Of a stretch of 12,061 nucleotides of DNA, positions 1-12,061 are shown in pieces. The stretch is taken from the IMG/VR virus record IMGVR_UViG_2574180227_000017; one strand, given 5' to 3'. Origin of the DNA: a virus (Duplodnaviria; Heunggongvirae; Uroviricota; Caudoviricetes). The notes below the pieces were generated by a model, which saw only the letters and a list, made by a program, of their open reading frames with translations, had not been told where the DNA came from and ran no database searches. The translations under genes were made by a program, and so were the position numbers. Each line of letters begins with the position of its first letter. Position 1 is the stretch's first letter.

Positions 1-1242
1 ATGGCGAGAAAAACACACCCATTAACCACAGTGCAGATCAAAGCAGCCAGACCAGCGCAAAAGGAGTACACCCTGCAGGACGGCGGAGGGCTTTTTCTCC
101 TGGTCAAACCGTCTGGATCAAAACTCTGGAGATTTTCCTACTACCGACCATCGGACAAAAAAAGAATATTGCTGAGTTTTGGATCGCTTGAAGATGTTTC
201 CCTGGCTGATGCCAGAAAACGCCGTAGCGAGTACAGGACGTTAATCAGTGCCGGAACTGACCCGCAGGACCACGAGAGGCAAAAAAGAGAGACAGAGGCC
301 CGAAGACAAGGGAACACGTTCGAAAATGTGGCGGCGGCATGGTACCAGGTGAAAATCAGCCAGAATCTGGCCCCCAACACGATTAAAGACATCTGGCGTT
401 CGCTGGATAAATATGTATTCCCGTTCATCGGCAACACGCCAATAGATACCCTCACCGCCCGAAGGTTCGTTGAAGTGCTTACCCCCATCAAGGAGCGCGG
501 CAACCTGGAAACACTCAAGCGGGTTTTACAGCGCGTTAATGAGGTAATGGATTACGCCGCCAACAGTGGGCTGATTGATGCCAATCCGGCTATGAATGTG
601 CGTAAGGCGTTTCCCTCACCTGTAAAAAAACATATGCCAACAATCCGCCCCGAACAGCTGCCCGAGCTTATGCAGGCTTTATCAGTATCGGCAACAGAAC
701 GGCAGACCAGATTACTGATTGAATGGCAGTTACTGACCGTAACCCGTCCCGCCGAAGCGTCATCAACGCGGTGGGATGAAATCAACCTGGACGCGAAGCA
801 ATGGACGATACCTGCCGGACGCATGAAGATGCGCAGGGATCACGTTATCCCGCTTTCCGGTCAGGCTATGGCGGTGCTGGAGGCCATGAAACCAATCAGC
901 CACCACCGCAATTACGTTTTCCCAAGTCTGAAAGACCCACAGCAGCCGATGAACAGCCAGACAGCTAACGCAGCATTGCGGCGTATGGGATTCGCTGGCG
1001 TGCTGGTGTCTCATGGATTACGCGCCATATTCAGCACAGCAGCGAACGAGGAAGGATTCGAGCCGGACGTAATAGAGGCGGCACTTGCCCACGTCGACAC
1101 CAACGAAGTTAGACGGGCATACAACCGGAGCAACTACATAGAAAAACGCATCGTGCTGATGCGCTGGTGGGGCGAATTTGTCGAGGCTGCGGCGACGGGC
1201 GTAACCCTCGCCAGTGGTAAAAGGGGTATCCGAGCCGTGTAG
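1..1242 (+). CDS. int: tyrosine site-specific integrase, P4/CP4-57 type
   Basis: 413-aa ORF. C-terminal catalytic region carries HGLR and AHVDTNEVRRAY motifs (His/Arg/Tyr of tyrosine recombinases). Overall architecture matches P4-family integrases. Sits at the element edge, so attL and the target are expected just upstream of the window. Confidence 0.9.
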   Translation: MARKTHPLTTVQIKAARPAQKEYTLQDGGGLFLLVKPSGSKLWRFSYYRPSDKKRILLSFGSLEDVSLADARKRRSEYRTLISAGTDPQDHERQKRETEARRQGNTFENVAAAWYQVKISQNLAPNTIKDIWRSLDKYVFPFIGNTPIDTLTARRFVEVLTPIKERGNLETLKRVLQRVNEVMDYAANSGLIDANPAMNVRKAFPSPVKKHMPTIRPEQLPELMQALSVSATERQTRLLIEWQLLTVTRPAEASSTRWDEINLDAKQWTIPAGRMKMRRDHVIPLSGQAMAVLEAMKPISHHRNYVFPSLKDPQQPMNSQTANAALRRMGFAGVLVSHGLRAIFSTAANEEGFEPDVIEAALAHVDTNEVRRAYNRSNYIEKRIVLMRWWGEFVEAAATGVTLASGKRGIRAV

Positions 1243-1738: not shown

Positions 1739-1945
1739 ATGGAAGCAATCAGAAAAATTATCTTTCGCCAGGAAGTAAAAAAAATTATCCACATCAAGGC
1801 AGACAGCACGCTGCAAAGCATGATCAACGCCGGAGAATTTCCGCAGGGTTTTCGCGTTGGTTTACGCCGTCGCGGATGGTATGAGGATGATGTGTTGTCC
1901 TGGCAGAAAGAACGCGAAGAGGAAGCACGCGGAACGGCTGCTTAA
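1739..1945 (+). CDS. alpA: AlpA-family phage regulatory protein (excisionase-like HTH)
   Basis: 68-aa protein. The ...INAGEFPQGFRVGLRRRGWYEDDVLSWQ... region matches the AlpA/Vis-type pattern (FP ... GW.E.E...W). Position immediately downstream of int is typical for PICI and P4-like elements. Confidence 0.8.
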   Translation: MEAIRKIIFRQEVKKIIHIKADSTLQSMINAGEFPQGFRVGLRRRGWYEDDVLSWQKEREEEARGTAA

Positions 1946-4096: not shown

Positions 4097-4396
4097 ATGA
4101 AACTTAAATATTCTGGCTTAACTGCCAGTGGCAACACTCACCCTAAATTTACGCGCGGTGATATTTACCGCGACCAGTACGGCGGCACGGTAATGATTAA
4201 GGGCGTGGCGGGACGGTGCGTAACTTACCGCCGTGAAGGTTACGAATATGATTGCGTGATGCCTGTTTATCAGTTCCGGCGTGATTTTTCTCTGGTACAG
4301 ACCGCGCCGCATAACGTGCCCACCAGCAGGGAGAAAGCACGCGCCAATATTCAGGAAATAAAAAAGATGCTTAACGTATTCAGGGGTAAAAAATGA
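4097..4396 (+). CDS. hypothetical protein (99 aa), translationally coupled to the primase gene
   Basis: SD GGAGAA upstream. Stop overlaps the primase ATG (ATGA at 4393-4396). Confidence 0.55.
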   Translation: MKLKYSGLTASGNTHPKFTRGDIYRDQYGGTVMIKGVAGRCVTYRREGYEYDCVMPVYQFRRDFSLVQTAPHNVPTSREKARANIQEIKKMLNVFRGKK

Positions 4397-6141
4397 AACT
4401 GGCACCGAACGTAAAAAAACAGCCACGCGGAATAAAACACAAAGACACAGAGGTAATTATCTTTGCGGGTAGTGATGCCTGGTCACACGCGGAACAATGG
4501 CAGGAGCAGGATGGCCCCGCATCCGGCGATAATGTGCCGCCTGTGTGGCTTGGGCCAAATCAGCTTGCCGAACTTGATGCACTGAAAATTGTTCCGGATG
4601 GAAAAAAACGCGTAAGGCTGTACCAGGCCGGAGAACTGGATTTGGTGGAGACCAAAAAGATTGGTCAGAAGCTGGCGGCGGCAGATATTCAGGACGCAAA
4701 TTTTTACCCCGAAGGAATGCACGTCCAGAAGTGTGAAAACTGGCGGCGCTATCTGAATGCTGAGCGTGAAAATATTGCCGCAGGGCTTACCATGCCGGAG
4801 CAGAAAAATACGCAACTGGCACAAATGGCAGACAGTGAGCGCGCGCAGCTGCTTGCCGAGCGCTTTGATGGCGTTTGTGTGCATCCGGAAAGTGAAATCG
4901 TTCACGTATGGCGCGGCGGGGTATGGTGTCCGGTCAGCACAATGGAACTTAGCCGCGAAATGGTGGCGATCTATTCAGAGCACAGGGCCACTTTCAGCAA
5001 GCGCGTAATCAATAACGCCGTGGAAGCGTTAAAAGTTATTGCCGAACCAATGGGCGAGCCGTCCGGCGATTTGCTGCCGTTTGCCAATGGTGCGCTTGAC
5101 CTGAAAACGGGGGAATTTTCCCCGCACACGCCGGAGAACTGGATCACCACGCACAACGGCATTGAGTACACGCCACCAGCACCAGGGGAGAACATCCGCG
5201 ATAACGCGCCAAACTTTCATAAATGGCTTGAGCACGCAGCCGGAAAAGACCCGCGCAAGATGATGCGTATATGTGCCGCGCTGTACATGATTATGGCGAA
5301 CCGGTACGACTGGCAGATGTTTATTGAGGCCACCGGAGACGGCGGGAGCGGCAAAAGTACATTCACCCACATCGCCAGCCTTTTAGCGGGGAAACAAAAC
5401 ACGGTAAGCGCGGAAATGACATCGCTTGATGATGCTGGTGGGCGTGCGCAGGTTGTCGGGAGTCGTCTTATCGTCCTGGCAGACCAGCCGAAATATACAG
5501 GCGAAGGCACGGGCATCAAGAAAATCACGGGCGGCGACCCCGTGGAAATCAACCCGAAATATGAAAAGCGTTTCACTACGGTAATCAGGGCGGTGGTGCT
5601 GGCGACCAATAACAACCCGATGATATTCACCGAACGGGCCGGAGGCGTGTCACGTCGTCGGGTTATTTTCCGCTTCGACAATATCGTAAGCGAGGCAGAA
5701 AAAGACAGGGAGCTACCGGAAAAGATCGCGGCTGAAATCCCTGTCATTATCCGCCGCTTGCTGGCGAACTTTACCGACCCTGAGAAGGCACGGGCTTTAC
5801 TACTGGAACAGCGTGACGGTGATGAAGCTCTGGCAATAAAGCAACAGACGGATCCGGTTATTGAGTTTTGCCAGTTCCTGAATTTTCTGGAGGAAGCGCG
5901 CGGCCTGATGATGGGTGGCGGTGGCGATTCAGTGAAGTATACGACCAGGAACAGCCTTTACCGCGTCTATCTGGCGTTTATGGCGTACGCAGGCAGGAGC
6001 AAACCGCTAAACGTAAATGACTTTGGCAAGGCTATGAAGCCAGCCGCGAAAGTTTACGGACATGAATATATTACGCGGAAAGTTAAGGGAGTAACGCAGA
6101 CTAACGCAATAACAACAGACGATTGCGACGCGTTTTTATAA
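4393..6141 (+). CDS. replication primase/helicase, P4-alpha-like (D5_N-type domain plus SF3 P-loop NTPase)
   Basis: 582-aa ORF. Walker A GDGGSGKST, Walker B-like LIVLADQ, motif C VVLATNNNP. Followed immediately by an iteron array, as in P4 alpha/ori and PICI pri-rep/ori. Confidence 0.9.
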   Translation: MKLAPNVKKQPRGIKHKDTEVIIFAGSDAWSHAEQWQEQDGPASGDNVPPVWLGPNQLAELDALKIVPDGKKRVRLYQAGELDLVETKKIGQKLAAADIQDANFYPEGMHVQKCENWRRYLNAERENIAAGLTMPEQKNTQLAQMADSERAQLLAERFDGVCVHPESEIVHVWRGGVWCPVSTMELSREMVAIYSEHRATFSKRVINNAVEALKVIAEPMGEPSGDLLPFANGALDLKTGEFSPHTPENWITTHNGIEYTPPAPGENIRDNAPNFHKWLEHAAGKDPRKMMRICAALYMIMANRYDWQMFIEATGDGGSGKSTFTHIASLLAGKQNTVSAEMTSLDDAGGRAQVVGSRLIVLADQPKYTGEGTGIKKITGGDPVEINPKYEKRFTTVIRAVVLATNNNPMIFTERAGGVSRRRVIFRFDNIVSEAEKDRELPEKIAAEIPVIIRRLLANFTDPEKARALLLEQRDGDEALAIKQQTDPVIEFCQFLNFLEEARGLMMGGGGDSVKYTTRNSLYRVYLAFMAYAGRSKPLNVNDFGKAMKPAAKVYGHEYITRKVKGVTQTNAITTDDCDAFL

Positions 6142-6159
6142 TTTTTTGTAATTGCTGTC

Positions 6160-6390
6160 TACCCTGTCTACCTGAGTAAAGAAAAATACATTTAATTCAG
6201 TATATTAACTTAGGTAGACAGCCTTTTTTCACTGTCTACCTACTATCTACCCTCTCTACCTGATTTTACCTGAATCAGACAGGGAGGTAGATACGGGGTA
6301 GATAGTGGATAAAAGCACTCTACCCCGCTGAAAGCCGCGCCATTACTGGTATGAGGGCCACTAAGGTAGATAAGGTAGACAAGGGGAGGC
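6160..6390. repeat. replication origin iterons: about 11 copies of the 8-bp motif TNTCTACC / GGTAGANA in both orientations, plus an AT-rich segment
   Basis: Copies at about 6164, 6172, 6213 (inverted), 6235, 6243, 6251, 6287 (inverted), 6297 (inverted), 6320, 6366 (inverted), 6375 (inverted). AT-rich stretch 6186-6212. Confidence 0.7.
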
Positions 6391-6429: not shown

Positions 6430-6708
6430 ATGCACACTTCAGGGAAATTTAATAAATCACTCAAAAAACGCAGAGACAGAACAGAACCGAAATATCGCGC
6501 GTTAGACATGACAGAGCACGCTTTAAAGGTGGCAATCAGAACGATAGACCGCCACGCGGGGGAAGGATACGCGAAAGCACATCCCGAACTGATAAGCGCA
6601 TTCATGACCACGACGGCGGCAAATTTTGCCACGCTGACAGAGCGGGAGATTGCCGAAGCGGAACAGGTAACAACCATCAACGTTAAAACCGGAGAGGTGG
6701 AATCATGA
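6430..6708 (+). CDS. hypothetical protein (92 aa)
   Basis: SD GAGGGGG upstream of ATG 6430. Stop overlaps the ssb start (ATGA at 6705-6708). Confidence 0.5.
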   Translation: MHTSGKFNKSLKKRRDRTEPKYRALDMTEHALKVAIRTIDRHAGEGYAKAHPELISAFMTTTAANFATLTEREIAEAEQVTTINVKTGEVES

Positions 6709-7127
6709 CAGCACAGATAGCCGCTTACGGGCGGCTGGTGGACGACCCGCAGGTAAAACAGACCAGCAAGGGTACACCGATGACGCTGGCGCGTATGGCG
6801 GTATCTTTGCCATGCAGTCAGGCACAGGACGGACAGGCAGCGTTATGGCTATCAGTCCTGGCATTTGGTAAGCAGGCCGACGCGCTGGCGAGACATGAAA
6901 AAGGCGACCTTATCAGCGTGGCGGGTAACATGCAGATCAGCCAGTGGACCGGACAGAACGGAGAAACGCGGCAGGGCTGGCAGGTTATCGCAGACAGTGT
7001 AATCAGTGCGCGAACGGCGCGACTGGGCGGCAAAAAAGGTCAACAGGGCCAGGCTACTGACGCGCTGAACAGGGCAAAACAACAGGCGGGGAATGATGAT
7101 CCGTACGGGGATAACATACCGTTTTAA
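6705..7127 (+). CDS. ssb: single-stranded DNA-binding protein (SSB-like)
   Basis: 140 aa. OB-fold-like pattern alignable to E. coli SSB (G.L..DP ... FGK.A ... KGD..V.G ... W...NGE.R). Ends in the acidic tail DDPYGDNIPF, resembling the canonical SSB tail DDDIPF. Confidence 0.75.
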   Translation: MTAQIAAYGRLVDDPQVKQTSKGTPMTLARMAVSLPCSQAQDGQAALWLSVLAFGKQADALARHEKGDLISVAGNMQISQWTGQNGETRQGWQVIADSVISARTARLGGKKGQQGQATDALNRAKQQAGNDDPYGDNIPF

Positions 7128-7142
7128 GCGACGAGTGACAGA

Positions 7143-7165
7143 AGCCGGAGCAATCCGGCTTTTTT
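7143..7165 (+). terminator. rho-independent terminator
   Basis: AGCCGGA-GCAA-TCCGGCT followed by TTTTTT. Near-identical copy at 9584-9607. Confidence 0.7.
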
Positions 7166-7346
7166 ACGGGTCCTCCTGGCGGGGTGGGCCTGAACACGGG
7201 GCGGGAGGCGCGGAAAAAAGCGCATTTTTGTGATTTTATCGTCATCATCATCATGAGCGTAATTTATTGTTTTTAATTGTTTTGATGCAAAAAAGATGAT
7301 GGTTTTGGTTAATTTTCGTTCGACATCTTTGCAGGCAGATAAAAAA

Positions 7347-7377
7347 GCCCGATAAGGTCAGAGGTGGCTTATCGGGC
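7347..7377. terminator. hairpin with flanking A/T runs (terminator-like on both strands, stronger on minus)
   Basis: GCCCGATAAG-GTCAGAGGTGG-CTTATCGGGC, preceded by AAAAAA and followed by TTT. Confidence 0.45.
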
Positions 7378-7458
7378 TTTTGCATATGAGGCTTTTTGGT
7401 GCACTGACACACATGATCGGGATAATCATTTCATAATTTGCAACGCAATTCAATATCA

Positions 7459-7510
7459 TTGCACAAAATGCAATCATGATTATAATCATAACTGGATGAA
7501 CATCCAGTTA
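7459..7510 (+). promoter_or_regulatory. capsid-operon promoter (TTGCAC 7459-7464, 16-nt spacer, TATAAT 7481-7486) with palindromic operator ATAACTGGATG-AA-CATCCAGTTAT (7487-7510)
   Basis: Read from the sequence. The -10 lies inside the palindrome ATGATTATAATCAT. The operator overlapping the predicted start has the form CTG-N10-CAG. Confidence 0.45.
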
Positions 7511-7542
7511 TGATTTTTTAAGTCAAAGAGGAATTTCTTACT

Positions 7543-7749
7543 ATGGCTGAAGAGAAAAAAGGCGGTGTTTCGGTGTACATAAGCCCCGACATCGTGAAGG
7601 CGCTCAAGGAACGCCACCAGCAGAACGTAAAAGCAGGCATTGCGGCAGGACTTGATCCGCTGGCGATGGTTGAGCCGTCAACAGGCTGGCAGGTACGCGC
7701 CTATTTACGCGCGGCGCTGGGTATGAATCAGGTTCACGGGGGTGAATAA
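7543..7749 (+). CDS. hypothetical protein (68 aa), first gene of the capsid operon
   Basis: SD AGAGG upstream. Stop overlaps the capsid gene start (TAATG at 7747-7751). Confidence 0.5.
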   Translation: MAEEKKGGVSVYISPDIVKALKERHQQNVKAGIAAGLDPLAMVEPSTGWQVRAYLRAALGMNQVHGGE

Positions 7750-8804
7750 TGACAGTAAAAGCAATAGCACTTAACACTAACCAGCTTTTTGCGTACCTGA
7801 ATCGCGAGGATATTGCGGAATTTAAATTCAGTCCGCTGTTTACCGCGCTGTTTTTCCCGAACGTGGCGACATTCAACACACAGGACATCATGTTAGATAA
7901 CCTGGATATTGAAGAAGTCACTATGTCGGCGTTTTGTTCGCCTATGGTTGGTAGCCAGGTTCAGCGCGATAAAGGGTACGAAACAAGCATTATTCGCCCT
8001 GGCTACATGAAGCCAAAACACGAAATCGATCCATTAAAAACAATAATGCGCATGGCTGGAGAAGATCCGGCACAGCTTAACGACCCTACCTACCGCCGTA
8101 TGCGCCTGATTACTGGCAACATGCGCCGCCAGATAAACGCCATTAAAGCGCGCGTGGAATGGCTGGCGGTGAATGCGATAACGACCGGAAAAAACATCAT
8201 TGAGGGCGAAGGCATAGAACGCTATGAAATCGACTGGAAAATACCGGAAAACTGCATCATAGAGCAGGCCAAGGGTAAAAAATGGTCTGAGCAGGATAAA
8301 GACATACACGACCCAATATATGACATTGAACTATACGCAGATCAGGCAGGTTGCCCCGCCAACGTCATGATTATGGGCGTTGATGTATGGCGCATGTTAC
8401 GCAGCTTTAAAAAATTCCGTGAACTGTACGATCTCTCCCGTGGTTCAGAATCCGCCGCAGAGCTGGCATGTAAAAACCTGGGAGAAGTGGTGAGCTTTAA
8501 AGGCTATCTTGGTGATCTGGCCCTTATCGTCTATTCCGGCAAATACACTGACAGCGACGGCACAGAAAAATATTTCCTTGAGCCTGATTTGCTGGTCCTG
8601 GGCAACACCAACAATAAAGGGCTGGTGGCCTATGGTGCGATTATGGAACAGGAAGCGGTAAGAACGGGCGCAACGCAAAACATGTTTTACCCGAAAAACT
8701 GGATTGAAGACGGCGATCCGGCGATTGAGTACGTGCAGACACACAGCGCACCGCAGCCTGTTCCGGCAGATATTCGCAAATTTGTTACCGTCAAAATTGG
8801 TTAA
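7749..8804 (+). CDS. major capsid protein, lambda gpE family
   Basis: 351 aa. Multiple blocks align with lambda gpE as recalled: FKFSPLFTALFF vs FKFDPLFLRLFF, PGYMKPKHEIDP vs PGYVKPKHEVNP, EDPAQLNDPTYRRMRLI vs EDPQNLADPAYRRRRII, LGDLALIVYSGKY vs YGDVAIVVYSGQY, YPKNWIEDGDPA vs YPKNWVTTGDPA. Confidence 0.92.
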   Translation: MTVKAIALNTNQLFAYLNREDIAEFKFSPLFTALFFPNVATFNTQDIMLDNLDIEEVTMSAFCSPMVGSQVQRDKGYETSIIRPGYMKPKHEIDPLKTIMRMAGEDPAQLNDPTYRRMRLITGNMRRQINAIKARVEWLAVNAITTGKNIIEGEGIERYEIDWKIPENCIIEQAKGKKWSEQDKDIHDPIYDIELYADQAGCPANVMIMGVDVWRMLRSFKKFRELYDLSRGSESAAELACKNLGEVVSFKGYLGDLALIVYSGKYTDSDGTEKYFLEPDLLVLGNTNNKGLVAYGAIMEQEAVRTGATQNMFYPKNWIEDGDPAIEYVQTHSAPQPVPADIRKFVTVKIG

Positions 8805-8815
8805 CGGTGGATTCT

Positions 8816-9151
8816 ATGAACACTCCATACATTGAGTTATTTGCAGGCAGTCAGCAGGTATCAACGACGCTGGTACATTTTGCCGCTGATGCTGGCGTTA
8901 TTCAGGAATTTACCCCGCTGATGCTGGCGGACAATGGCGAGTTTAAGCCGTGGGATGGTCAGGAATCTGGCAAGGCTGTTTATCTGACCTCGTACCCCGT
9001 TGACACGTCGACGCAGAAATCAGCACAGTGCTATAAGACGGGGATATTCAATATCGCCGCCGTTAACTGGCCTGAGAGCGTCGACACCGATGCGAAAAAA
9101 TGCGCCGCCTTTGCGGGTTCTGGCGTATCCGTTCAGCCGCTGGCCCGATAA
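8816..9151 (+). CDS. head decoration protein, lambda gpD family (alternative GTG start at 8807)
   Basis: About 111 aa. Conserved gpD blocks TPLML, WDG, YKTGIF (lambda YKSGTF), WPE, KK.AAFAG. SD GGTGGA before ATG 8816. Confidence 0.85.
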   Translation: MNTPYIELFAGSQQVSTTLVHFAADAGVIQEFTPLMLADNGEFKPWDGQESGKAVYLTSYPVDTSTQKSAQCYKTGIFNIAAVNWPESVDTDAKKCAAFAGSGVSVQPLAR

Positions 9152-9163
9152 GCAGGGGGAACG

Positions 9164-9577
9164 ATGGCAACGAATGAAAGCATCATGGCGCTACCGCTGG
9201 CGAGTAAATTTAAAGCCGAAGCGCGGGCAATGGCTGACAGAGGGTTATCAACCTACGAGGCCGTATATCAACTCAACAAACTGGAAGAACAGGACAAGCC
9301 GCGCGCTGATGCGATTATGGCGCTTCATGAACATAACGACTATCAGCCGCTGTTACGTGCAATGGCAAACGTGCCATGTATTAGCGTCGATAATGCTCGT
9401 GAAATCCTGAACATGACCATAGAGCAGGAGCGCCCAAAGGTTGCACCAGAGCTTACCGCAGCCTTTGAAAACTTTATGGACATGCACAGCCCGCAAGCCG
9501 TATCAGCTGGCATGGCGTACGATGGCAGAAACCAGGGCGATGACGGCGACATCGATCGCATACTGAAAACCATCTGA
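9164..9577 (+). CDS. hypothetical protein (137 aa), last gene before cos
   Basis: ORF with SD GGGGGAA upstream, followed by a terminator. Similar in size and position to a head-completion or packaging accessory protein, but no motif recognised. Confidence 0.5.
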   Translation: MATNESIMALPLASKFKAEARAMADRGLSTYEAVYQLNKLEEQDKPRADAIMALHEHNDYQPLLRAMANVPCISVDNAREILNMTIEQERPKVAPELTAAFENFMDMHSPQAVSAGMAYDGRNQGDDGDIDRILKTI

Positions 9578-9583
9578 GACAAG

Positions 9584-9607
9584 GCCGGAGAAATCCGGCT
9601 TTTTTTT
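9584..9607 (+). terminator. rho-independent terminator
   Basis: GCCGGA-GAAA-TCCGGC followed by TTTTTTTT. Copy of the terminator at 7143. Confidence 0.7.
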
Positions 9608-9608
9608 A

Positions 9609-9675
9609 CGGGTCCTTTCCGGCATATGGACCCGTTACGGGGCGGCGACCTCGCGGTTTTTCGCTATTTATGAGC
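9609..9675 (+). other. cos site: cosN 12-nt cohesive-end sequence GGGCGGCGACCT at 9640-9651 with lambda-like flanks
   Basis: ACGGGTCCTTTCCGG...GTTACG-GGGCGGCGACCT-CGCGGTTTTTCGCTATTTATGA matches the lambda right-end/left-end junction as recalled (…GTTACG | GGGCGGCGACCT | CGCGGGTTTTCGCTATTTATGA…). Sequence after about 9675 diverges from lambda cosB. Confidence 0.75.
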
Positions 9676-9799
9676 CTTTTCAGGGGGGTGGTGGTGGTTT
9701 TGTTGTTTGCTCTATCTTTATGAATGAAAAGGGAAAGATGCAAACAATACACCAACCTGAAGCAGTAATTAAGTTGGTGTATTAATGAAATCGCACCTG

Positions 9800-10327
9800 A
9801 TGAACAAAAAAAACATGGCGAAAAGCTGCCGTGTAAGTGCGACAGCGTTCGACAAGTGGGGAGTGACTCCCGTTGAACGTAAAGGCCGTGAGGCGTTTTA
9901 TGATGTTGCCAGCGTGATAGACAATAGGGTTAACAATGCAATTAGCCAGCTTACAAACGACAAAGGCGATATTGACGATGATGAACTATTACGAGTCAGG
10001 ATCAGATTACTGACAGCGCAGGCGGAGGCGCAGGAGCTTAAAAACGAGCGCGAACGAGGCGACGTTATTGATACAGGGTTTTGCCTGTACGCGCTTTCAA
10101 AGCTGGCGAGCCAGATTTCTTCAATCATGGACAGCATCCCGCTTACTATGCAAAGGAGCTTTCCACACATTACCCCAGCCATGCTGGATGGGCTTAAAAG
10201 GGAAGTGGTTAAAGCCTGTAATGCCAGTGCCAGAGTTGCCGACAACCTCCCACAGATACTGGCTGATTACTTGAAAGAAACAACCGGAAACGTACCGGAA
10301 AAGTTGCAGCAGAATAAAGATAAGTAA
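9800..10327 (+). CDS. terminase small subunit, lambda Nu1 family (start taken at MNKKN by alignment; ORF track start 9785)
   Basis: Aligns with lambda Nu1 over its full length: NKK start, YD.A.VI, RLLTAQAEAQELKNERERGDVIDTGFCLYALSKLASQISSIMDSIPLTMQRSFP vs RLTRAQADAQELKNARDSAEVVETAFCTFVLSRIAGEIASILDGLPLSVQRRFP. The N-terminal DNA-recognition segment is the most diverged. Confidence 0.8.
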   Translation: MNKKNMAKSCRVSATAFDKWGVTPVERKGREAFYDVASVIDNRVNNAISQLTNDKGDIDDDELLRVRIRLLTAQAEAQELKNERERGDVIDTGFCLYALSKLASQISSIMDSIPLTMQRSFPHITPAMLDGLKREVVKACNASARVADNLPQILADYLKETTGNVPEKLQQNKDK

Positions 10328-10338
10328 CGTAGTACGCT

Positions 10339-10620
10339 ATGACTGAATCCGAAATACTGCGATTAATCCGCCGCGTCTCTGGAATCAGCCAGCAGGCTGA
10401 CGAACAGACCACGCAGCCGGACAGCGTGACAGCCGAAAACTATGCGCGTGTGGTTGCTGAGGTGATGCGCCGTGATGGTATCCAGCTTAATGATGTGGAT
10501 ATGCGCGACATACGGATCCGCGTTCTTGAAATGCTGGCCTACAATCGCCGCGTTGAGATGTATCGGGAGAAAGAAAAAATAACGTACCACTGGAAGAAGC
10601 CGGAGCGGTTGCGGCGGTAA
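10339..10620 (+). CDS. hypothetical protein (93 aa) in the position where lambda has terminase large subunit gpA
   Basis: ORF 11 nt downstream of the Nu1-like stop. Weak resemblance of residues about 5-40 to the gpA N-terminus (LRLIRRVSG / NRLRHFVRAG; VTAENYA / VEWADANYY). Not conclusive. Confidence 0.4.
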   Translation: MTESEILRLIRRVSGISQQADEQTTQPDSVTAENYARVVAEVMRRDGIQLNDVDMRDIRIRVLEMLAYNRRVEMYREKEKITYHWKKPERLRR

Positions 10621-10677
10621 CTGGTTGATATTTTCGGAAACCTCAATTTGAGGAGGCCGGAAGCGTCACCCTTTAGA

Positions 10678-10962
10678 TTCTGAATGGTGATAATCACCAC
10701 GCCCAATCGTGACGGAGAGTGACAGCCAGTGACACGCCGTGACAAAAGACGGTTTAACCGTTAATTAAAAATCGACGGGATTTTGTGTTTTCCGGACGAC
10801 GTAGCCAACGTCATTTTTTAGCGAAAAATTCTGATTAAGGTCATTGTCTGAATGGTCATAATGACCACGCAGACCATCAAGGCAACCATAACGATTTTCG
10901 TTACGGTTGATGTGTGCCTTCGTCCGGCATTCGGACGATATAAGGGATGGTCATAATGACCA
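10678..10962. repeat. three copies of a palindromic motif TGAATGGT(G/C)ATAAT(G/C)ACCAC (10681-10700, 10848-10870, 10945-10964)
   Basis: Near-identical 20-24 bp units read directly. Cores TGGTGATAATCACCA and TGGTCATAATGACCA (x2) are imperfect palindromes about an odd centre. Confidence 0.6.
10709..10743 (+). repeat. four GTGAC pentamers at exact 10-bp spacing (10709, 10719, 10729, 10739)
   Basis: GTGACGGAGA GTGACAGCCA GTGACACGCC GTGACAAAAG. Helically phased direct repeats. Confidence 0.6.
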
Positions 10963-11112
10963 CTCCTACAGAACAGGTAAAACCCACCAGCCTGATTAAC
11001 AGTTAACCGGAAAAAAAATCCGGCATGGGGGGGGAGTGGTTAGCCACGAACAACGAATAAGCTGGACACCGCGCCCCCTCTCACGCAGAGAAAAAATTAC
11101 CGTTTCGTAGTA

Positions 11113-11235
11113 GTTAACATGTTAACTGCCTGATGAAGCGTTGTTGTTGATTTTGTCTTTATGATTCATCTGGTTGCGAGCAAAAAATGTTAACTACCTT
11201 TTTGGTAAAAATGTTAACAGGGCAGAGGTTAACAT
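11113..11235. repeat. cluster of ATGTTAAC / GTTAACAT octamers, including the perfect palindrome GTTAACATGTTAAC (11113-11126)
   Basis: Copies at 11113, 11119, 11187, 11211 and 11228 (inverted). Confidence 0.55.
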
Positions 11236-11250
11236 TAACCTAGCGTAAAT

Positions 11251-11276
11251 CCCGATATGGTGATCACCATATCGGG
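11251..11276. repeat. 26-bp perfect palindrome CCCGATATGGTGATCACCATATCGGG
   Basis: Read directly. Contains a GATC site at its centre and a TGGTGA/TCACCA core related to the motif at 10685. Confidence 0.6.
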
Positions 11277-11487
11277 GAACATCCACCAGCTTAAAAACGA
11301 ATGAGCGAAAAAAAATCCAGGTAGAATCATGGAAGTCGCTAGGGCAATCGCCGTTTAAATTGTGCATTTTTTCAGCAAATTATTTTAGTTATACGTTTGG
11401 TTATACGGTTTAAAAGTTGAATCAATAATATTTATTAAAATCATGCGGTTACATGCTAAATTAAACTACTCTCGTGAATCCCAAGAA

Positions 11488-11514
11488 AACCAACCTATTG
11501 CGGTTGGTTTTTTT
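11488..11514. terminator. hairpin with T-run (terminator-like; plus-strand T-run stronger)
   Basis: AACCAACC-TATTGC-GGTTGGTT followed by TTTTTT. A second hairpin AAACAGACCG...CGGCCTGTTT (11535-11564) directly abuts the stop of the minus-strand gene. Confidence 0.5.
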
Positions 11515-11575
11515 ATATCTGCATTTAATTCGATAAACAGACCGCGACACATCACGGCCTGTTTATTTTCTGTTA

Positions 11576-12061
11576 TCAGAACGTCCAGACCACACCCGCC
11601 TGAGTTGTGCTGCTTTCTTCACGGGAGAAACGGCTGTCGATACCGAGCGTCAGGCCCGTCAATGTTTGCTCAAAGCCAGCTCCCGCATCAGTGTTCACGT
11701 TGTTGCGGCTGTTAATTACCGAACTCCACATCGCCGTATCGTAATTAACGCCTTTTACGCTACCAAGACGCCCACGCACGGTGTCCAGTTCTGCATCAAA
11801 TACCAGCGGTTGTGCTGCCGCCATATTCAGCACATCCGTGGTTGAAGGGGGCATTTGTACGCGATTCTCTGCGAGACTCCAGCTATGGTTGCCATTATCC
11901 AGCAAGGTATATTCATACGTACTGATATCAACAACGCTTCCGGCATTGCCCAACGTAAATGCCGCATCACCGCGCCCTCCTTTAATCGTGGGATCAGTCG
12001 CCGCGCCATAAACCTGTAGCACTCCATTATTGATCGTAGTCTGGTTTACCGCGCCACCCAT
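11576..12061 (-). CDS. 3' portion of an autotransporter-like (type V secretion, Ag43/AIDA-like) gene; ORF runs off the window at its 5' side
   Basis: Passenger-like repeats (GGAVNQTTINNGVLQVYGAATDPTIKGG). YTLLDNGNHSWSLAEN resembles the Ag43 junction motif YSLNRDSDESWYLRSE as recalled. Ends in the aromatic terminus VWTF typical of outer-membrane beta-barrels, but only about 95 aa follow the junction motif, so the beta-domain looks too short. Confidence 0.45.
   Translation of the reverse strand: MGGAVNQTTINNGVLQVYGAATDPTIKGGRGDAAFTLGNAGSVVDISTYEYTLLDNGNHSWSLAENRVQMPPSTTDVLNMAAAQPLVFDAELDTVRGRLGSVKGVNYDTAMWSSVINSRNNVNTDAGAGFEQTLTGLTLGIDSRFSREESSTTQAGVVWTF

Follow-up and report, generated by a model that had tools for sequence, protein, structure and literature searches.

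What are three palindromes and a phased array of GTGAC repeats doing in the non-coding right end of a phage satellite? The question is raised by a 12,061-nt stretch of DNA (the window hereafter; IMG/VR virus record IMGVR_UViG_2574180227_000017) which, judged by its sequence, is a phage-satellite island of the kind called phage-inducible chromosomal island (PICI), of the EcCICFT073 type and inserted at tRNA-Pro/yejO. Its right end, from 10621 to about 11468, is an approximately 850-bp non-coding region between an open reading frame (ORF) of 93 codons, ORF93, and the attachment (att) core, and contains both elements. A sequence-only reading of the window had noticed them and proposed a protein-binding architecture: integrase arm sites, a partition-like site or a set of operators. 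The general idea of protein binding fits our sequence comparisons, which also place the elements on the island and not on the chromosome, but the arm-site and partition candidates fail. The reading that we favour, tentatively, makes the array an orphan site on which the initiator of a helper prophage would land, to be hijacked or titrated, and the palindromes joints between cassettes, with a dyad under selection. The observation itself is real and specific to the satellite family, and it is only partly explained.

Both elements were confirmed by reading the sequence and with a repeat finder, which placed copies of a 24-nt motif at 10679-10702, 10847-10870 and 10942-10965; in the sequence-only reading the starts of the first and third copies were off by one base. 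The cores are 15-bp palindromes of perfect 7-1-7 symmetry, present once as TGGTGATAATCACCA and twice as TGGTCATAATGACCA. With up to three mismatches allowed, the pattern TGGTSATAATSACCA gives 8 strand-matches against 0.76 expected, and none of 200 shuffles reached 8. The GTGAC repeats start at 10709, 10719, 10729 and 10739, and not one shuffle gave even three phased copies, so that chance is a poor explanation for either element. The accompanying statement that no ORF accounts for the stretch holds for long ORFs, but a 34-aa ORF (10852-10956) starts in palindrome 2 and ends in palindrome 3.

How common are these elements, and with what do they travel? Of 5426 complete E. coli genomes, 729 gave a match to a 35-nt probe around palindrome 2, with a median of 1 place per genome and a range of 1-4, and 825 to a 341-bp probe of the region. 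A single palindrome per island is the usual state; the three-copy arrangement is rare, only 3 of the 5426 genomes covering at least 80% of 10640-10980. Among annotated genomes and IMG/VR contigs, related copies of the motif lie almost all downstream of an ORF93 homologue in satellites, L038 and L071 being the exceptions. These satellites differ in integrase and in insertion site (proL, icd/phoQ and others); their replicons use a D5 primase or a RepA helicase, and they have either of two packaging modules, lambda E/D with Nu1 or the HK97-type, capsid-forming one with P27-TerS/TerL/HNH. The motif therefore travels with the island family and not with the chromosome; since its places are few per genome and bound to satellites, it is not a common repeat of the repetitive extragenic palindromic (REP) type, the finding that the sequence-only reading had named as fatal to its proposal. 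Because the motif follows ORF93 whatever the integrase, replication or packaging module, its distribution also argues against arm sites, a partition site, a terminase site (cosB) and an origin of the island's own.

The GTGAC array can be followed into phages. A scan of IMG/VR for four GTGAC copies at 10-bp phase returned at least 120 stretches, from which 119 loci were analysed. Among the matches listed, 92 of these 119 arrays lie within ORFs of at least 100 aa, and 61 of the 92 ORFs are homologous to four seed initiators; further arrays in phage contigs are non-coding repeats. PHROG names for ORFs of the seed type are replication initiation protein, O-like, replisome organizer, DnaD-like loader and primosomal protein, and one seed initiator contains a DnaT domain, the gene after it being lambda-P-like. 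In RefSeq the GTGAC-type initiator (e.g. L127 2916-3400) is mostly called 'DnaT-like ssDNA-binding domain-containing protein' or hypothetical. In E. coli phage Tritos, the gene annotated 'Replication protein, N-terminal phage replisome organiser' contains GTCACgaaatGTCACgcgagGTCACattgatGTCAC and has four GTCAC repeats at 10/10/11-bp spacing, with an inverted GTGAC about 40 bp downstream. The window resembles such phages closely at one point: 17 nt at 10728-10744 (AGTGACACGCCGTGACA) are identical to the iteron pair of a group of E. coli phages represented by 27 contigs (L127), whose heptamers also match those of the island, (C/A)GTGAC(A/G). In phage lambda, the origin iterons lie inside gene O. 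As the phage arrays lie inside initiator genes in the same way, we infer that they are the origin iterons of an O-like or replisome-organiser initiator family.

The N-terminal region of this initiator was found in 2186 of the 5426 complete E. coli genomes (about 40%), in up to five copies, and no homologue is encoded in the window. An initiator so common in E. coli and lacking from the window suggests that the array is an orphan iteron set for a widespread prophage class. The array does consist of at least four direct repeats of a GTGAC core, one per helical turn, as an iteron origin would; it does not lie in or next to a cognate initiator gene, and since it is non-coding and has no initiator adjacent, it can be no more than an orphan copy, outside the class of phage origins proper. 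The island's own origin is found at 6150-6390, directly after the D5-type primase gene, and has at least 12 GTCTACC/GGTAGAC iterons and an A+T-rich centre. Different iterons follow the RepA-type helicase gene in L001, L002 and L003, and RepA-type relatives show AAGTGGGC, AAGTGAGG or AGTGGGGA.

Within the islands the array is well kept. Among 25 island arrays only three columns vary, all of them in the spacers, and the 20 pentamer positions are invariant; the GTGAC arrays of RepA-type relatives differ from that of the window at spacer positions only, or are absent. The array has been retained where ORF93 is only 77% identical and the adjoining DNA has been replaced. Of the 25 array-bearing island loci, 23 keep it at 144-145 bp from palindrome 2, the exceptions being L187 (97 bp) and L163 (no palindrome within 400 bp). 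At this constant spacing a full palindrome bounds the GTGAC cassette on the right; its left boundary is a full palindrome, a half palindrome or none. Presence of the array is independent of the replication, capsid and TerS types of the island.

We propose, tentatively, that the right end has been assembled from portable cassettes and that the GTGAC array would be an orphan copy of the iterons used by initiators of lambdoid prophages (O-like or 'replisome organiser'). The island has no such initiator and a different origin of its own beside the primase, and for these reasons we read the array as a place where a helper initiator could land. That initiator, from a helper phage either resident or infecting, would bind the array, with two possible outcomes: the replication machinery of the helper might fire on the island, or the array might soak up the initiator and so interfere with the helper. 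Helper cis-sites do collect in this non-coding region, as a cos copy of Shiga toxin (Stx) phage type in it indicates. The palindromes, for their part, would be a site for a dimeric DNA-binding protein, or a hairpin or cruciform, common to the islands or supplied by the host. The broader claim, that EcCICFT073-type and capsid-forming PICIs carry a portable orphan mimic of a helper-prophage origin, in which a GTGAC cassette bracketed by palindromes captures or titrates the initiator, is more doubtful. Among the papers searched, none describes a helper replication-origin mimic in PICIs.

Several observations weigh against this proposal. The phage arrays themselves are taken as origin iterons by analogy only, and variation in the island arrays is only weakly enriched in the spacers (p about 0.08). 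GTGAC is a short sequence, and the homology to phage genes does not extend past the array. When the repeats are set in the same orientation, the A+T-rich stretch of the island flanks the array on one side and the moderately A+T-rich stretch of L127 and Tritos flanks it on the other, and the island region has no DnaA box or IHF consensus. About two thirds of related islands do without the array, so that it is dispensable. As for the palindromes, they also encode MVIMTT at the starts of tiny ORFs, the association screen of 40 islands described below yielded no partner protein, and their invariance could come from recent spread and recombination rather than from function.

What can be said of the palindromes themselves? 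They occur as two alleles, GGTCAT-A-ATGACC and GGTGAT-A-ATCACC, which are related by a symmetric double change. The same double change was seen again in an independent context (L245), and no mixed allele was found among the loci examined. A third site type, TTACGATAATCATAA, is symmetric at 6 of 7 positions and adds two further compensated pairs. This symmetric covariation of the arms points to selection on the dyad. In more than 60 instances full palindromes hardly vary, and each core is surrounded by extra, imperfect complementarity of differing sequence, which makes the element of L002 a 45-bp imperfect palindrome. The flanks are of four left kinds (a, b, c and d) and three right kinds (i, ii and iii), and these are freely combined. 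Some islands lack the 80-bp segment between palindromes 2 and 3 and have a single hybrid palindrome, flanked on the left as palindrome 2 is and on the right as palindrome 3 is. There are also half palindromes, in which the junction falls exactly at the centre and the orphan half is mutating (ATGAGC, ATGTCC). From such comparisons we conclude that the palindromes are joints between exchangeable cassettes, with the break point at the palindrome centre. They fit the site of a dimeric protein (island-common or host-supplied), a hairpin or cruciform, and a recombination joint maintained by exchange, which the sequences do not separate.

In an association screen of 40 reasonably complete islands no gene tracked the palindrome or the array, spurious local ORFs aside. 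ORF93 was rejected as a palindrome-binding protein, having no sequence or fold relative and being found also in islands without the palindrome. Fur sites, dif/Xer sites and lambda operators were compared by eye and do not fit. In L127-type phages, sequences that resemble the palindrome about 2.2 kb from the origin are coding (LRGDYHQS) and were set aside as chance matches. A search of GenBank phages with the palindrome region gave no match; what it returned, in ant and tail genes with E values no lower than 2, is put down to chance. A fourth, perfect palindrome of 26 bp, CCCGATATGGTGATCACCATATCGGG at 11251-11276, is related to the three and had been overlooked in the sequence-only reading; the GATC at its centre is the only Dam site in the non-coding region, and variants such as CCCCGTTATGGGGATCCCCATATCGAC occupy the same relative place in islands with other integrases.

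Could the palindromes be doing something else? They might be operators of one dimeric regulator (from the island, the host or the helper) that loops the DNA cooperatively and controls the tiny ORF or a leftward small RNA ending at a hairpin at 10749-10761. Perfect 7-1-7 dyads that are nearly invariant in many contexts have the size of operators (14-20 bp), and the palindrome centres, 168 and 95 bp apart, are separated by 16.0 and 9.05 turns (of 10.5 bp), which would put all three on one face of the helix. Each core has a -10-like (C/G)ATAAT, and a minus-strand TTGCCT-16-CATTAT with a terminator-like hairpin downstream would give an RNA of about 105 nt. However, a promoter scan at a threshold of 9/12 found none in the region, any -35 element must differ between islands because the left flanks do, and the predicted folding of the putative small RNA does not surpass that of shuffles (z = -0.47). 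Most islands have one copy, and the phasing is not kept in L038, whose two copies are 271 bp, or 25.8 turns, apart. No regulator co-varies with the palindrome in the 40 islands, and both alleles occur within one island. We rate an operator set, whose regulator may be that of the host or the helper, as unlikely. Somewhat more unlikely, in our view, is that the palindromes and the neighbouring stem-loops act as RNA or single-strand hairpins at the 3' end of the late operon, where they would stabilise or process the transcript, or insulate attP and int from read-through in the excised circle. The compensatory symmetric changes do preserve pairing, a C-to-T change in L249 leaves a G-U pair on the plus strand, extended stems of differing sequence flank the cores (the element of L002 included), and the non-coding region is throughout a string of short hairpins. 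Folding z-scores are -4.2 for 10850-10990 and -1.3 to -3.6 for single palindromes, with -2.8 (plus) and -3.6 (minus) for palindrome 2; such values are expected, however, because palindromes fold well by construction. With a 1-nt centre only 5-6 pairs are possible, no U-tracts follow the cores, and the exact sequence is conserved beyond what pairing needs. A plus-strand hairpin at 10798-10812 (followed by T6) probably ends the capsid-terS-ORF93 (late) operon, which would leave palindromes 2 and 3 beyond the operon end. Substitutions in the stem of hairpin 1 are disruptive as often as they are compensated, and a search of 9500-11620 against Rfam, with E up to 1, returned only noise (Atu_C9, at 16.6 bits against a threshold of 40 bits).

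A rather unlikely view is that neither element has a current function, the palindromes being recombination hot spots or scars and the array the relic of a captured phage origin. It accommodates the combinatorial flanks, the break points at the centre, the decay of half palindromes and the presence/absence polymorphism of every cassette, and tandem partial copies of the 3' end of ORF93 mark the region as one that gathers recombination products. It does not explain why full palindromes and all 20 pentamer positions stay invariant where ORF93 differs by about 23% and the intervening DNA has been replaced, and symmetric covariation implies selection on the dyad. Quite improbable is that the palindrome is there as the coding start of tiny (19-45 aa) hydrophobic proteins. 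It can be read ATG GTC ATA ATG ACC AC, or MVIMTT, and opens ORFs of 12, 34 and 19 codons at copies 1, 2 and 3. The ORF at 10852-10956 and its in-frame equivalents in relatives have MVIMTTQTI(K/E)AT..VTV in common with several synonymous third-position changes (ACG to ACT, ACG to ACA, GTC to GTT, CCG to CCT), and two E. coli records, the only finds of the homology search, annotate such proteins. Yet there is no Shine-Dalgarno sequence, synonymous and non-synonymous changes stand at about 5:10, close relatives differ by one-base indels and at their C-termini, Shigella has lost the first ATG, and palindrome 1 opens a 12-codon ORF only; nor would coding alone explain paired changes in the arms, so that it is an unlikely reason for the palindrome. 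Least probable of all are sites for integrase arm or Xis binding, a partition centromere, cosB or the island's own origin, which we regard as very improbable. Phased short direct repeats do resemble arm-type or centromere arrays, and the position after the packaging genes suggested a packaging site. But 500-790 bp separate the palindromes and array from the att core (CTCTCGTG, placed at 11469-11476 by comparison with the empty site and falling within the tRNA-Pro 3' end), whereas arm sites lie roughly 50-200 bp away, and the palindromes are unchanged with other integrases and insertion sites. A better fit, and likely the true arm sites, are TTAGTTATACG repeats at 11384-11407, 62-85 bp inside the att core, which recur on the attL side in front of int as two direct and two inverted copies. 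Genes of ParA/ParB/ParR type are lacking from the annotation of the near-identical island L001 and of L002 and L003, and from the ten window ORFs scanned. A cosB role was rejected: R sites of cosB directly flank cosN and precede the small-terminase gene, the lambda-type cosN, GGGCGGCGACCT at 9640-9651, lies upstream of the Nu1-like terS, and the motif occurs also in islands with P27-type terminase. The same holds for an own origin, since the iterons at 6150-6390 co-vary with the replication protein and the GTGAC array does not.

The layout of the non-coding right end and the gene content of the window are given in Table 1. Two terminator-like hairpins stand in the linker, the minus-strand one at 10749-10761 (with a T-run) and the plus-strand one already described. 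Patterns for matS (GTGAC-N3-GTCAC) and Fis are absent from the region, as are those for the DnaA box and IHF.

Table 1. Elements of the non-coding right end and annotated genes, by position in the window
Feature	Position	Strand	Description
Palindrome 1	10676..10708		core TGGTGATAATCACCA at 10685-10699; 'G allele', both arms symmetrically changed relative to palindromes 2 and 3
GTGAC array	10709..10743	+	four repeats in exact 10-bp phase; heptamers (C/A)GTGAC(A/G)
Linker	10744..10842		conserved; 63% A+T; two terminator-like hairpins
Palindrome 2	10843..10877		core TGGTCATAATGACCA at 10853-10867; extended imperfect stem GTCTG..CAGAC
Cassette between palindromes 2 and 3	10868..10947		hairpins at 10884-10908 and 10921-10937; body of the 34-aa ORF
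Palindrome 3	10943..10967		core TGGTCATAATGACCA at 10948-10962
Conserved block	10974..11023		CAGGTAAAACCCACCAGCCTGATTAACAGTTAACCGGAAAAAAAATCCGG; closes the module in most related islands examined
Integrase	1-1242		
AlpA-like gene	1739-1945		
D5-type primase	4393-6141		
SSB	6705-7127		
Capsid	7749-8804		lambda E-like
Decoration protein	8807-9151		gpD-like
Scaffold-like protein	9164-9577		
Small terminase (terS)	9785-10327		Nu1-like
ORF93	10339..10620	+	satellite-specific 93-aa helical protein, phrog_1561; nearly always precedes the non-coding region

A near-identical locus is in E. coli MS 21-1, with 98% identity over 10600-11580, between tRNA-Pro and yejO. Gram-negative PICIs of the EcCICFT073 type have capsid and head-decoration homologues and lambda-like cos sites (PMC6092414; PMC9026076), and the assignment of the window to this type follows from the match of its gene content, ten ORFs of which were scanned against Pfam and PHROGs, to the published EcCICFT073 layout (PMC6092414). 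The ORF93 family is narrow and mostly from E. coli. Neither a GenBank phage match nor a PDB or fold relative was obtained; AlphaFold models show three helices (pLDDT 68-72) and gave no Foldseek match below E = 2, and a scan of contigs with ORF93 as query found one Shigella locus only. Downstream of ORF93, the relatives L049, L073 and L102 have 1-7 tandem units, each a copy of the ORF93 3' end (ggcgcggtaactNgttgatattttcg) with a short hairpin of variable sequence, and the window has one such unit at 10606-10660.

Two further observations concern the genes to the left. Over the first approximately 140 residues the D5-type primase (window 4393-4810) shares 41-60% identity with the N-terminus of the RepA-family helicases in related islands (L001 7008-7427), which suggests an N-terminal domain in common on two different replication enzymes. 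Relatives have a PerC-family regulator gene after SSB; as there is no plus-strand ORF of at least 50 aa at 7127-7543 of the window, this gene may be lost or disrupted here. The cis elements of the island also include some that lie apart from the palindromes and the array. On the attL side (L001 2957-3165), CACCGGA occurs three times and TCACCG twice, each at 10-bp spacing. At 11062-11236 there is a 175-bp copy, with 79% identity, of the intergenic cos-type region between HNH and terS of Stx/lambdoid phages (YYZ-2008, BP-4795, PPompW), which includes GGACACCGCGCCCCCTCTCACGCAGAG and four ATGTTAAC repeats and is an insertion relative to most related islands. Since this region comes in addition to the lambda-type cosN at 9640, the island may be packageable by two types of helper.

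PICIs exploit their helpers through cos sites, terminase redirection and capsid genes, and their replication is thought to be autonomous. If the array is indeed a mimic of a helper origin, it would add a link between satellite and helper at the level of replication, as piracy or as interference, parallel to the theft of cos. It would be a simple cis element of about 150 bp, and could help to predict which prophages are helpers or victims of a given island. The palindromes appear as points of cassette exchange between the right ends of lambda-capsid-type and capsid-forming PICIs, which helps to explain the mosaicism of these islands. If neither element is functional, this is an ordinary mosaic non-coding region.

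How do these elements compare with known systems? In iteron plasmids (pSC101, F, R6K, P1), monomers bind the iterons and dimers bind inverted repeats. The island likewise has phased direct repeats flanked by palindromes that share with them a core, GT[G/C]A; it differs in that no initiator gene or promoter is adjacent, that the core in common is only 4 nt and that the palindromes are also found without the array. In lambdoid phages, short conserved boundary or linker sequences mark the joints where unrelated modules exchange, and the joints of the island differ from these linkers in being perfect palindromes with break points at the centre and symmetric covariation. The cognate origin of a PICI is a set of iterons that directly follows pri/rep on the 3' side and changes together with the replication protein (PMC6092414); the GTGAC array departs from this arrangement, and it is the iterons at 6150-6390 that adjoin the primase instead. 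The helper cos sites of EcCICFT073-type PICIs, P4 and the cos-type staphylococcal pathogenicity islands (cos-SaPIs) offer a closer parallel, because there too a satellite keeps a copy of a helper cis-site for a helper protein (PMC6092414, PMC6739421), but they serve packaging, unlike the replication-origin mimic proposed here. In lambda, rep-lambda phages are blocked when a plasmid carries iterons ITN3-4 and an intact oop gene is transcribed as well, the 'inhibition phenotype' (Hayes et al. 2012, PMC3349717). Like the island array, the lambda ori iterons are four initiator-binding repeats by an A+T-rich stretch, initiator binding being predicted in the case of the island, and their silencing of initiator-dependent phages in trans is a precedent for titration by the island array (PMC3349717). 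The lambda iterons are 19-bp dyads bound by O dimers, whereas those of the island are direct repeats of 5-7 bp of the 'replisome organiser' type; moreover, the island array is an orphan in a satellite, and in lambda the oop RNA gene must be transcribed too for the effect to occur. By analogy, the array would work like a phage iteron origin without being a member of that class, and helper cos sites and the lambda 'inhibition phenotype' are its nearest analogies.

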